Position numbers and translations under genes: made by a program. The notes below the pieces were generated by a model. That model worked only from the letters and a program-made list of their open reading frames with translations, did not search any database and was not told the origin of the DNA. A DNA stretch of 40,901 bases from a virus (lineage: Duplodnaviria; Heunggongvirae; Uroviricota; Caudoviricetes): IMG/VR virus record IMGVR_UViG_2563366888_000019, positions 1 to 40,901 of that record; one strand, given 5' to 3'. Of this stretch, positions 1 to 40,901 are shown in pieces. Each line of letters starts with the position of its first letter. Position 1 is the stretch's first letter.

Positions 1-516
1 ATGAAATTTAAAAAATGTCTTCTGCCTGTGGCAATGTTAGCGTCATTCACTCTGGCAGGATGCCAGTCAAATGCTGACGATCATGCTGCCGATGTTTATC
101 AAACCGATCAACTGAATACCAAACAAGAAACTAAAACCGTTAATATTATTTCCATTCTTCCCGCAAAAGTTGCCGTAGACAACTCCCAAAATAAACGGAA
201 CGCACAAGCCTTCGGCGCGCTTATTGGCGCAGTCGCTGGCGGTGTTATCGGCCACAACGTCGGGTCTGGCAGCAATTCCGGAACGACGGCAGGTGCAGTT
301 GGCGGCGGAGCTGTAGGCGCGGCAGCGGGTTCTATGGTGAATGATAAAACCTTAGTGGAAGGTGTTTCTTTAACCTATAAGGAAGGCACCAAAGTGTATA
401 CCTCTACCCAGGTGGGTAAAGAGTGCCAGTTTACGACAGGTTTAGCCGTTGTTATTACCACGACGTATAACGAAACGCGTATTCAGCCAAATACCAAATG
501 TCCTGAAAAGAGCTAA
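1..516 (+). CDS. glycine-zipper lipoprotein (171 aa)
   Basis: ATG at position 1; signal peptide ending in lipobox LAGC; Gly/Ala-rich AVAGGVIGHNVGSG zipper segment; lies outside the phage late block. Confidence 0.6.
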   Translation: MKFKKCLLPVAMLASFTLAGCQSNADDHAADVYQTDQLNTKQETKTVNIISILPAKVAVDNSQNKRNAQAFGALIGAVAGGVIGHNVGSGSNSGTTAGAVGGGAVGAAAGSMVNDKTLVEGVSLTYKEGTKVYTSTQVGKECQFTTGLAVVITTTYNETRIQPNTKCPEKS

Positions 517-531
517 TAATCAGGAGGAGTC

Positions 532-1071
532 ATGAAGAAAGTTTTTCTTTGCGCCATCTTAGCCTCCTTAAGCTATCCGGCTATCGCCTCATCATTGCAG
601 GATCAACTCTCTGCTGTCGCAGAAGCGGAACAGCAAGGTAAAAATGAAGAGCAAAGGCAGCATGACGAATGGGTCGCGGAGCGCAACAGGGAAATCCAGC
701 AAGAGAAGCAACGTCGCGCAAATGCCCAGGCCGCCGCTAACAAAAGAGCGGCAACGGCAGCGGCAAATAAGAAAGCTCGTCAGGATAAACTGGACGCCGA
801 AGCCTCTGCGGACAAAAAACGCGATCAAAGTTATGAAGATGAGCTACGCAGCTTAGAGATTCAGAAACAAAAACTGGCGCTGGCGAAAGAAGAAGCCCGC
901 GTTAAGCGAGAAAACGAATTTATCGATCAGGAACTGAAGCACAAAGCTGCGCAAACCGATGTGGTGCAATCTGAAGCTGACGCCAACAGAAATATGACTG
1001 AAGGCGGTCGCGATCTGATGAAAAGCGTGGGCAAAGCAGAAGAGAACAAATCGGACAGCTGGTTTAATTAA
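532..1071 (+). CDS. secreted Ala/Lys/Glu/Gln-rich coiled-coil protein (179 aa), function unknown
   Basis: AGGAGG 6 nt upstream of ATG; N-terminal signal peptide; highly charged helical body. Confidence 0.55.
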   Translation: MKKVFLCAILASLSYPAIASSLQDQLSAVAEAEQQGKNEEQRQHDEWVAERNREIQQEKQRRANAQAAANKRAATAAANKKARQDKLDAEASADKKRDQSYEDELRSLEIQKQKLALAKEEARVKRENEFIDQELKHKAAQTDVVQSEADANRNMTEGGRDLMKSVGKAEENKSDSWFN

Positions 1072-7454: not shown

Positions 7455-7540
7455 ATCGGGCACTGGCAAAATCCAGTGCCGGGATTGGCGTTCCGGATTA
7501 CTAAAAGGCGCATTCACCGCGCAAGCGGTTTTTTTATGCG
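7455..7540 (+). ncRNA. candidate structured RNA / leader element with terminator
   Basis: 10-bp-stem hairpin CGGGCACTGG-N6-CCAGTGCCGG followed by ACCGC-GCAA-GCGGT plus T7 terminator; no credible ORF. Confidence 0.3.
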
Positions 7541-7692
7541 TATAGCACGGCCACATTCGTATTATGGTGGGCTGTGTGGGGGCACCGAAAGGTGCGCCGG
7601 GTCCTTTTAGCCGGTTACGCCAACCCTGCACAGTTCACCACCAACCGATTGGCGTCGGTAGTGGTGATTAACCAGACTAAAAGGTAACCACT

Positions 7693-25334: not shown

Positions 25335-25541
25335 TTACTGACCAAGCAGCGTTTTACCGCTGGTATTAGCGGTTGATGTGTCACCCTGAGAACCGGTAAG
25401 CAGCGTAGAACTACGACCAGCAGCAGCGCGACGGCGACGAGTTTCTTCGTCGCGGGCATCAACAACGGCGGCATCCTGCTCCTGTGGTGCTGCCTGAACT
25501 TCTGGTGTTGCAGGCACTGATGGTGAGCTACCCATGCACAT
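25335..25541 (-). CDS. small acidic low-complexity protein (68 aa)
   Basis: initiation region CGGAGTCATTGA-ATG almost identical to that of the portal gene. Confidence 0.35.
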   Translation of the reverse strand: MCMGSSPSVPATPEVQAAPQEQDAAVVDARDEETRRRRAAAGRSSTLLTGSQGDTSTANTSGKTLLGQ

Positions 25542-25609
25542 ATCAATGACTCCGTACGCAATTAAATTATTACCAATTTAACCACATATGATTTATTTAT
25601 CGTAGATGG

Positions 25610-25638
25610 TTGACATTTAACGCACAAATTATTACCTT
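25610..25638 (+). promoter_or_regulatory. candidate promoter (-35 TTGACA) facing the tRNA
   Basis: TTGACA at 25610-25615; poor -10 (TACCTT) overlapping palindrome site 4. Confidence 0.3.
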
Positions 25639-25647
25639 TCAGGTAAC
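25631..25647. promoter_or_regulatory. operator-like palindrome ATTACCTTTCAGGTAAC (site 4)
   Basis: same core as site 1; between head operon start and tRNA. Confidence 0.55.
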
Positions 25648-25968
25648 CAAAGAGTTCATTCCGGTTACTAACCTGACTGGCTTGTCGTTAAATTGAACAG
25701 GTGGAGTGAGCTTTTATTTTGAGCAGTACGGCGTATGGCACATGCGCCGATAGCGGTCTGGATACGTTTAAGGGGCACCCTCCCTTGCTCGGGCAAACGA
25801 ACCAGGTAGCCGGAATGTGCAAGTCGAGCGGTTTTATTCCGCGCACGGGGATTCACCATCCCGGCGATTCGGTGTGACGCCTCGGAAGAGACGAGGGTAC
25901 AACGATGAGAGCATTTATGGAGCCGCGACAAAGTGTGGCGCCTTAACAGGCTAAGTGCTCTCAGCGTT

Positions 25969-26045
25969 GTGGCATTAGCTCAGTTGGACAGAGCAACCGC
26001 CTTCTAAGCGGTTGGTCGCAGGTTCGAATCCTGCATGCCACGCCA
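25969..26045 (+). tRNA. tRNA-Arg (anticodon UCU)
   Basis: 77 nt; acceptor stem GTGGCAT/ATGCCAC, T-loop GGTTCGAATCC, anticodon loop CTTCTAA, discriminator G and encoded CCA; close to host argU-type tRNA as recalled. Confidence 0.85.
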
Positions 26046-26088
26046 GAATCACGCCTAAGGACCGTGATGCCAGAAGTTCCAGGGGCTT

Positions 26089-26131
26089 GGCGGTGATGGT
26101 TTCCCTTGAAGGACTATCACCGCCCTTTTTA
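26089..26131 (+). terminator. rho-independent terminator after tRNA
   Basis: GGCGGTGAT...ATCACCGCC stem then CTTTTTA. Confidence 0.55.
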
Positions 26132-26208
26132 CAGCAGGACGCCATTGCGATGACTTCATGCTGTAAACCAGTACAGCCACGGAAGGCATAACTCATTGCT
26201 TCCAGTTC

Positions 26209-26232
26209 GCCCGGTTCGCCGGGCATTTTTTT
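26209..26232 (+). terminator. second rho-independent terminator
   Basis: GCCCGG-TTCG-CCGGGC then ATTTTTTT. Confidence 0.65.
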
Positions 26233-26243
26233 AAGGTGAGATT

Positions 26244-26615
26244 ATGAACGACCAGTAAATCGAAAAAGAAATCGCAGCCAAGGGTAAGACGGCGGCTCGC
26301 GTTACTCCTGAACACATTGCCAGCATAATCGCCAGCGAACATTACTTTACGGCCGCTGATGGTGCTCGCTTTGCTCATGTGCAGAGAAGCGAAACATACA
26401 GCGTAAAAATCCCAGACCAGCCTGACGAGCTGGAGCTGCTGACATTCTGCGTACTGGTGCTGAAGAATGGCTTCACTGTCACCGGAGAGAGTGCCTGTGC
26501 AAGTCCGGAAAATTTTGATGCAGAAATTGGTCGGAAGATTGCCCGGCAGAATGCTGTAAACAAAATCTGGATGCTTGAAGGTTACTTGCTGAAGCAGAAG
26601 TTAAGCGAGCAATAA
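26244..26615 (+). pseudogene. 123-codon ORF interrupted by in-frame TAA at codon 5 (alternatively a 78-aa CDS from GTG 26379)
   Basis: AAGGTGAG SD then ATG AAC GAC CAG TAA; same frame stays open and protein-like for 119 codons. Confidence 0.4.
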
Positions 26616-26635
26616 CACATTGACATGTCACAAAC

Positions 26636-26663
26636 AGCCAGCCGATGAGCTGGCTTTGTTTTA
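26636..26663 (+). terminator. rho-independent terminator
   Basis: AGCCAGC-CGATGA-GCTGGCT then TTGTTTT. Confidence 0.6.
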
Positions 26664-39644: not shown

Positions 39645-40901
39645 TTATTTATTACTGTCTTCCATCCACCTCTCAAACTTCGACGGGGAGAACGGAATCA
39701 GATCCGTATGCTCCCCATTAATCCAGGAATCAATCATATCGGCCCACTGCTGCAACATGTAGGCGCGCTGTCTGGCGTATTCCGCTTTGTTATATACGGC
39801 GCGCACACCTTTCTGCTCATGTGCCAGAGCCTTTTCAATCCAGTCTGAAGGATAACCAGCCTCATGCAACAACGTACTTGCTGTACGGCGCATATCGTGT
39901 ACGGTGAAGCCCTGAATATGCTCACCATCTTCATTTATTATTTTCACCGTTCTGTCGATCAGAGAGTTCAGCGCGGCATTAGATAATGGCTTCCGGAAAT
40001 TGTAACGACCAGGAACCAGATATTCACTTCCACCAGCGCACATCTGCAACCCGACCAATATATCCTGAGCCTGTTTAGGCAGGTAAATAACGTGCGCCCG
40101 GCTTCCCTTCATGCGGTCTGAAGGAATTGTCCATGTCCATTTTTTAAAATCTATTTCATCCCACGTTGCGTTGGTGAATTCGCCTTTACGAACCATAGTG
40201 ATAAGCACCAGCTTTAAAGCCATTTTCATAGTGCCCATAGCACCAATGGCATCCAGCGTGCGGAAGAACAGGCCAATTTCTTCTGGTGTCAGTGTTCGCT
40301 CTCGTGGTTTAAATATGGCGATAGACGAAGGTTTAATGTCAGCCGCAGGATTAAACAAACCATGACCACGGTCATTGGCGTGACGGTATACGCTGCTGAT
40401 GATCTCCCTGGCCTGTACTGCTGTTGCCCGACCACCGCGTTCGACAATCCGGTCACACAAATCACGAACCATCGATGTGGTAATTTCAGCCATCATTTTG
40501 TTGCCAAGAACCGGAAGTATGTCACGGTCGATCACCGCCTGCTTCATTGCGCGGGTACTGTCAGCCAGGATGACGTGTTTCATATAACTGTCGGTATGTA
40601 CCGCAAACGTCTCAGCACCACGAATCTTTTTGATACCGTCACGTTTAGCCGCAGCCGGTGACTGGCCTGCTTTAAGCAGCTTCTTTGCAGCAATCAGTTC
40701 TTCCCGCGCTTCTGCCAGGCTGATACCGTCACGCCCATACTGCCCGATTACCAGTGTTTCGCGGCGACCGTTGATACGGTAGTCATAGCGAAACGAGACC
40801 GTGCCTGACGTAAGTACAGCTACATACAGCCCGTCACGATCGGAGACCTTGTACAGTTTGTCCTGCGGCTTGAGGTTTTTTAATTTTGTATCGGTAAGCA
40901 C
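39645..40901 (-). CDS. int: tyrosine integrase, 5' end at or beyond window edge (at least 418 aa)
   Basis: C-terminal H-x-x-R (HDMRRTAST) and catalytic Tyr region (VRAVYNKAEY); first codon in window is GTG at the edge; convergent with phosphatase gene. Confidence 0.85.
   Translation of the reverse strand: MLTDTKLKNLKPQDKLYKVSDRDGLYVAVLTSGTVSFRYDYRINGRRETLVIGQYGRDGISLAEAREELIAAKKLLKAGQSPAAAKRDGIKKIRGAETFAVHTDSYMKHVILADSTRAMKQAVIDRDILPVLGNKMMAEITTSMVRDLCDRIVERGGRATAVQAREIISSVYRHANDRGHGLFNPAADIKPSSIAIFKPRERTLTPEEIGLFFRTLDAIGAMGTMKMALKLVLITMVRKGEFTNATWDEIDFKKWTWTIPSDRMKGSRAHVIYLPKQAQDILVGLQMCAGGSEYLVPGRYNFRKPLSNAALNSLIDRTVKIINEDGEHIQGFTVHDMRRTASTLLHEAGYPSDWIEKALAHEQKGVRAVYNKAEYARQRAYMLQQWADMIDSWINGEHTDLIPFSPSKFERWMEDSNK

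Follow-up and report, generated by a model that had tools for sequence, protein, structure and literature searches.

A recurring nonsense allele very probably makes a temperate Uetakevirus lineage a natural Acb4-null

Acb4 proteins, which constitute the family PF13876, are small and assemble into pinwheel tetramers, and the pockets between their protomers sequester cyclic dinucleotide signals, e.g., 3'3'-cGAMP, whereby CBASS is blocked (bioRxiv 10.1101/2024.12.30.630793). All eight purified Acb4 homologues (8/8) bound 3'3'-cGAMP, and only those of phages with Gram-negative hosts bound 3'3'-c-di-AMP too (bioRxiv 10.1101/2024.12.30.630793). In Acb4 of the Bacillus phage SPO1, the dimer interface is a three-stranded sheet, and the ligand is contacted by residues K36, F48, E49, V56, Y57, F62, N63, I66, T70, and K81 (bioRxiv 10.1101/2024.12.30.630793). 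Acb4 can also set off host defence. The PanDA system of E. coli includes the mini-diadenylate cyclase PanS, whose constitutively produced c-di-AMP restrains the pore-forming effector PanE; Acb4 of phage Bas69 or N4 alone sequesters c-di-AMP and thereby triggers the PanDA effector, with a Kd of 111 nM for N4 Acb4 (bioRxiv 10.64898/2026.08.10.743972). The majority of Bas69 mutants that escape PanDA carry mutations in acb4, most commonly premature-stop SNPs (bioRxiv 10.64898/2026.08.10.743972). Furthermore, SPO1 Acb4 triggers a system called 'Panoptoo' (10.64898/2026.08.10.743927), phage Ab09 is rescued from Panoptes when its acb4-sequestin fusion is deleted (10.64898/2026.06.04.730250), and N4 acb4 activates Panoptes, as cited in the latter preprint (10.64898/2026.06.04.730250).

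Here, we describe an acb4-family gene that is interrupted at its fifth codon in a 40,901-nt sequence (IMG/VR record IMGVR_UViG_2563366888_000019; hereafter the window, i.e., the whole stretch of DNA that was analyzed). The window represents a phiV10/epsilon15-like temperate podovirus (Uetakevirus). Its structural half is 97% identical to phage EC.W1-9, and the acb4 region is 88% identical to phiV10 and, in parts, 96-98% identical to other Uetakeviruses. The frame reads TTTAAGGTGAGATT, ATG(26244)-AAC-GAC-CAG, TAA (26256-26258), and then ATC GAA and onwards. A first-pass annotation made from the letters of this DNA had described an ORF downstream of a tRNA, with a good Shine-Dalgarno site before ATG-AAC-GAC-CAG-TAA, a frame that stays open and protein-like past the stop, and no ATG ahead of a GTG at 26379. 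Each of these observations was borne out. The tRNA is tRNA-Arg(TCT) at 25969-26045 (+; ARAGORN; Rfam tRNA model, 73.3 bits) and is not a suppressor. The Shine-Dalgarno site AAGGTGAG of the acb4-family gene (26233-26240, +) has an anti-SD pairing energy of -4.8 kcal/mol, lies 4 nt from ATG 26244, and is kept in phiV10, ZX5, PH444, and phiv142-3. Positions 26244-26258 (+) run from the start codon through three sense codons to the premature stop, and the frame then continues for 118 open codons up to the TAA at 26613-26615. From TAA 26256 to GTG 26379, it contains neither ATG nor GTG nor TTG, only ATC, ACG, ATT, and ATA.

The translation of the frame past the stop matched PF13876 (Phage_gp49_66), which Pfam names 'Phage protein, N4 Gp49 / phage Sf6 gene 66 family', over the entire model (positions 1-82 of 82; E 1e-36; 125.7 bits versus a cut-off of 27), and the frame is therefore no chance ORF. 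It also matched phrog_322 (E 1e-58), and a sequence search of the PDB returned one relevant match, 9E4W, 'anti-CBASS 4 (Acb4)' of Bacillus phage SPO1. An AlphaFold2 monomer model built on an alignment of 40 homologues (mean pLDDT 85, pTM 0.74) has the succession of elements H,H,E,H,H,E,E,H, i.e., in full-length numbering, helices 7-12 and 22-28, strand beta1 29-36, helices 37-48 and 61-64, and, in the C-terminal part, strands 66-73 and 78-84 and helix 93-122. In a Foldseek search against the PDB, chains of 9E4W were the best 13 matches (probability 1.00, E 2.5e-3 to 9e-3), with target-normalized TM scores of 0.54-0.69 that indicate moderate and not high similarity. By Pfam, PHROGs, AlphaFold2/Foldseek, and end-to-end alignment of homologues, positions 26259-26615 (+) thus comprise the remaining 118 codons and the natural TAA stop of an Acb4 (PF13876, Gp49/Sf6 gp66) gene, and the interrupted locus is a member of this family by descent, as shown by both the HMM match and the predicted fold.

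SPO1 Acb4 (9E4W) is accordingly the closest structure, sharing PF13876, a helical N-terminus, the three-stranded sheet, and a long C-terminal helix, as well as being the best fold match in the PDB. The two differ in that the gene in the window has a stop at codon 5, such that its protein is presumably not made, in a sequence identity of only ~22%, and in an extra conserved N-terminal segment of ~25 residues plus a hypervariable linker in the enterobacterial proteins. In a phmmer alignment, the SPO1 ligand-contact residues F48, F62, and I66 are kept as F77, F91, and I95, along with a G-R motif, whereas others are changed (E49 to T78, V56 to C, Y57 to A86, N63 to D92, and T70 to I). By analogy with the characterized relatives, the 123-aa protein would act as an Acb4-type sponge for cyclic dinucleotides.

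Intact relatives within the Gp49 family are found in phiV10 (PhiV10p03), vB_EcoP_ZX5, mEpX1 (mEpX1_063), and Sf6 (gene 66), and as E. coli protein WP_126875155.1. They resemble the interrupted gene in using the same start codon and Shine-Dalgarno site and in length (123 aa in phiV10 and mEpX1, 113 aa in ZX5), and the phiV10 and ZX5 genes also follow a tRNA-Arg and two hairpins and converge with terL. They differ in having a sense codon at position 5, namely CAA (Gln) or, in phiV10 and ZX5, GAC (Asp), and in that the allele in the window is a mosaic. The DNA alignment reads CAG-CAA-ATC in mEpX1 and PH444 versus CAG-TAA-ATC in the window. For a wider survey, IMG/VR was scanned with the pattern ATTATGAACGACCAGNAAATCGAAAAAGAAATC, which matched at least 120 contigs; in the tally that includes other sampled loci, 121 have C at the N position and one has T. 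Codon 5 is thus CAA (Gln) in 121 of the 122 IMG/VR contigs sharing the 5' end, and TAA in one. All of the other complete loci with this 5' end (114/114) are uninterrupted and encode 112-135 aa, and 107 of the 114 end in EGYLLKQKLSEQ. The best 120 homologues listed in the protein database are all at least 112 aa long (most 118-130 aa) with a query coverage of at least 96%, and homologues of 112-135 aa align end to end with the interrupted frame. Comparison of codon 5 with intact homologues had been proposed in the first-pass annotation as one check, and the answer is a sense codon elsewhere. A pattern that would have spoken against an interruption, i.e., homologues starting at the equivalent of 26379, did not appear; intact homologues use the same ATG.

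An alignment of 41 sequences, including the 40 homologues, divides the protein into conserved residues 1-40 (invariant at I6, E7, I10, R19, T21, I29, E32, F35, and G40), a hypervariable linker at residues 41-64, and a very conserved core at residues 65-123. Position 5 is variable across the 40 homologues and always a sense codon (Q, D, K, or E in the rows displayed). When Gln is restored at this position, the protein of the window is identical to E. coli WP_126875155.1 over all 123 residues. An intact DNA twin, i.e., a sequence with CAA and the window-specific 5' end that differs only at 26256, was not found in IMG/VR or the JGI metagenomes, and the evidence for an ancestral CAA is therefore the identical protein record together with the near relatives. 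Intact alleles have C at 26256, where the window has T, and these comparisons identify the lesion as a single C>T transition at this base that turned the CAA of Gln-5 into TAA. There is no second lesion in the acb4 gene. As the gene is otherwise undamaged, the mutation is recent, and the alignments characterize it as a lineage-specific CAA>TAA nonsense mutation. The sharing of the ATG by intact homologues and the CAA in 121/122 contigs, mEpX1, and PH444 support a recent nonsense pseudogene, the first of three alternatives put forward in the first-pass annotation.

The first 209 nt of the allele differ from those of the siphovirus mEpX1 at only two sites, one of them being the nonsense change, and its last ~160 nt match PH444 and phiV10 and show 24 differences from mEpX1. 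This mosaic pattern indicates recombination inside acb4, around the hypervariable linker.

The gene is oriented opposite to the packaging and head genes and converges with terL via a shared hairpin. Between tRNA-Arg and the Shine-Dalgarno site lie two terminator-like hairpins, the first with a 14-bp stem and a T-run (26089-26124, +) and the second consisting of GCCCGG-TTCG-CCGGGC followed by ATTTTTTT (26209-26224, +). The latter ends 9 nt before the Shine-Dalgarno site and is kept in phiV10, ZX5, PH444, and phiv142-3. The hairpin between the convergent acb4 and terL (26636-26655, no strand assigned) has an A-rich stretch and a T-run on its flanks and closes the slot; the phiV10 annotation lists it as a rho-independent terminator, and it is kept in phiv142-3 and TL-2011b. 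No sigma-70-like promoter was found between the hairpin at 26209-26224 and acb4. Candidates for the transcription of acb4 are terminator readthrough, antitermination, and a promoter of another type. Upstream of tRNA-Arg, ~430 nt (25542-25968) separate it from a small gene at 25335-25541 and show no convincing ORF, Rfam match, or consensus promoter, and the promoter of a tRNA plus acb4 unit is presumably located within this interval. An 83-aa ORF on the minus strand (25975-26226) lies opposite tRNA-Arg and the first hairpin. Its counterparts in phiV10 (PhiV10p04), ZX5, TL-2011b, and EC.W1-9 are annotated as 'hypothetical protein', and it is most likely an annotation artefact over an unannotated tRNA.

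The content of the slot (26225-26660 in the window) changes from phage to phage. Intact Gp49-family genes occupy the same place in the same orientation in phiV10 and ZX5. In phiv142-3, the slot is empty, and all that follows the Shine-Dalgarno site is a remnant of 8 codons; TL-2011b and EC.W1-9 carry unrelated genes of 115 aa and 201 aa, respectively. From this comparison of gene content, the tRNA-Arg-terL slot is clearly a variable cargo site in Uetakeviruses. That the slot is empty in phiv142-3 and filled with other genes in TL-2011b and EC.W1-9 also argues that acb4 is dispensable. The slot ORFs of TL-2011b and EC.W1-9 had no Pfam match and might be other anti-defence genes. A PADLOC search gave no match.

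The rest of the phage is intact. All 45 annotated EC.W1-9 proteins with counterparts in the window (45/45), among them terminase, portal, head, tail, lysis, integrase, recombination, and repressor proteins, are without internal stop there, and nearly all are full length. General prophage decay was considered and rejected on the absence of internal stops from these 45 other genes. By its gene complement, the window resembles a viable phage in which a single cargo gene has been knocked out.

We propose that this lineage is very probably a natural Acb4-null, in which an acb4-family cargo gene was broken by C>T at 26256. The gene, situated between tRNA-Arg and terL of a Uetakevirus, would have lost its Gln-5 codon (CAA) to TAA; translation initiated at the strong ATG 26244 would then end with release of the tetrapeptide MNDQ, and the 123-aa sponge would not be made at a useful level. 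Loss of the protein in this lineage is the most likely outcome. With its coding sequence interrupted, the locus is best read as a null allele or a very young pseudogene, and it does not qualify as a recoding site, a coupled upstream ORF, or a gene dependent on suppression, since the features that define these are missing. The mechanism is ordinary, namely a point-mutation knockout of an accessory phage gene. Some biological value, if modest, comes from the 2026 preprints, according to which premature stops in acb4 are the main escape route of E. coli phages from PanDA.

It is intriguing to ask whether the knockout was selected. The TAA could be a natural escape mutation that shed the Acb4 sponge, provided that E. 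coli hosts of this phage carry a PanDA/Panoptoo or Panoptes guard that fires on sequestration of its constitutive cyclic dinucleotide. This proposal would refine and not contradict the interpretation as an Acb4-null, and we regard it as tentative and, on present evidence, rather unlikely. It is plausible because Acb4 triggers PanDA, Panoptoo, and Panoptes, and, with PanDA escapers being mostly acb4 premature stops, the allele of the window is exactly the genotype that such defences select. It also fits that, in a phage intact elsewhere, acb4 alone is broken, that the lesion is an early stop, and that the allele circulates in several samples. The Bas69 escape mutants (bioRxiv 10.64898/2026.08.10.743972) offer the nearest comparison, with a single premature-stop SNP in the same gene family in an E. 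coli phage. Those mutants, however, were selected in the laboratory against a known defence and arose in an N4-like lytic phage, whereas the allele described here is natural and resides in a temperate Uetakevirus. Moreover, it is one allele in one closely related lineage, which drift in a dispensable cargo gene explains equally well. Independent recurrent nonsense alleles were not seen among the 114 related loci, and a capacity of this Uetakevirus Acb4 to bind c-di-AMP or cUA is putative. If the proposal is true, the locus would be a field example of bacterial counter-counter-defence, so far shown only with laboratory escapers. In any case, a natural null in an intact temperate phage is a ready-made test of whether sponge-sensing defences shape the gene content of wild phages.

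An Acb4-null would be too strong a description if some protein were still made, and low-level UAA readthrough or near-cognate initiation may occur on the TAA allele. A strong Shine-Dalgarno site and ATG bring ribosomes to the TAA, the remaining ORF is undamaged, and the stop is followed by A, a context (TAA-A) in which termination is not at its strongest. Of the three stop codons, UAA leaks the least in E. coli. Across the four assemblies in which it was sampled, the allele has acquired no second disabling mutation, as would be expected if it arose very recently but also if some function remains. Yet we consider it improbable that readthrough, or restart at a near-cognate codon just past the stop, supplies low but functional amounts of near-full-length Acb4. 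The stop is not conserved, the RNA shows no stabilizing structure around or after it (the fold of 26195-26330 is no stabler than shuffled sequence; z 0.18), and the only in-frame near-cognates close to it (ATC 26259, ATC 26271, and ACG 26289) have no well-spaced Shine-Dalgarno site. Because a sponge binds its ligand stoichiometrically, trace amounts should be ineffective.

Three further routes past the stop were considered and rejected. Programmed recoding or readthrough, the third of the alternatives raised at first pass, found no support in a stop that is CAA in 121/122 contigs and absent from the 114/114 open loci, or in the sequence 3' of it, which has no significant fold. Suppression by the neighboring tRNA is precluded by its TCT anticodon, which reads AGA/AGG; it is the sole tRNA of the window, which hence encodes none that reads UAA. 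Bypass by frameshift is prevented by TGA at 26245 in the +1 frame and by TGA at 26237 in the +2 frame, with no start thereafter.

Even less probable is restart at GTG 26379 after a short upstream ORF, giving a functional 78-aa C-terminal Acb4 fragment (26379-26615, +), which is the product that gene callers report for the TAA allele. GTG 26379 is the first canonical in-frame start, and the fragment would keep strands beta2-beta3, the long C-terminal helix, and the positions aligned with the SPO1 ligand-contact residues. In addition, phrog_16684 has exactly the same extent, its 78 positions matching the GTG-start product end to end (E 1.4e-46). The site is, however, poorly equipped for initiation, lying 120 nt past the stop with a weak and badly spaced Shine-Dalgarno pairing (-2.8 kcal/mol, 14 nt spacing), and the lack of any nearer start with a ribosome-binding site leaves non-canonical restart, the second first-pass alternative, unsupported. 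The product would begin at residue 46, inside the hypervariable linker, without the conserved residues 1-40. In the model, it is devoid of helix 22-28, beta1 (29-36), which belongs to the three-stranded sheet of the dimer interface, and most of helix 37-48. It is thus probably not functional, and again the best 120 homologues listed, none under 112 aa, include no protein of this length. Calls of the 78-aa gene are present in ENA assemblies (proteins P0001 and P0002), P0002 being a variant with two further substitutions (C>G and N>D) at otherwise invariant positions. These proteins and phrog_16684 are most simply gene calls on the broken allele, and phrog_16684 probably derives from this pseudogene fragment. 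The ENA calls, and probably phrog_16684, are consequently to be read as pseudogene fragments, though stored as protein.

The TAA allele itself is real and recurs. Apart from the window, the exact allele was present in three further assemblies, namely one IMG/VR contig and two ENA metagenome contigs. The IMG/VR contig (IMGVR_UViG_3300045988_055866) is 99.3% identical to the window over an 8-kb locus, with 58 differing aligned positions (55 mismatches and a 3-base insertion), only three of which fall within 23.2-27.2 kb. The ENA contigs are k141_15605 of ERZ27278337 (100% identity over 1,127 nt) and scaffold_6619 of ERZ28626985 (99.9% identity over 902 nt). An exact (100%) match to 26225-26420, as expected of the TAA allele, occurred in none of 5,426 complete E. 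coli genomes (best match, 98.3%), the allele was absent from JGI metagenome contigs, and a 33-nt pattern in either allelic form had no match in GTDB species-representative genomes. The distribution points to a circulating and rare allele of single recent origin in one phage lineage. A sequencing or assembly error in a phage that truly has CAA, as its one-base difference from intact alleles might suggest, is scarcely credible and is ruled out by the identical TAA in three independently assembled contigs from different projects, one of them with 58 differing positions over 8 kb.

Other features of the window concern its regulation and its ends. An isrK RNA (7460-7535, +; Rfam, 72.3 bits) adjoins a C4 antisense RNA (7560-7645, +; 77.7 bits), and the pair is a P1/P7-type antisense RNA immunity module beside an anti-repressor-like region. 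At the start of the window (1-1071, +), two ORFs of 171 aa (1-516) and 179 aa (532-1071) encode signal-peptide/lipoprotein-like proteins. They have no counterpart in EC.W1-9 and belong either to the host, as flanking DNA on the far side of the attachment site, or to the phage, as morons. At the other end, the last base of the window coincides exactly with the start codon of the integrase gene (39663-40901, -), and the window has the appearance of a provirus prediction trimmed to gene boundaries.
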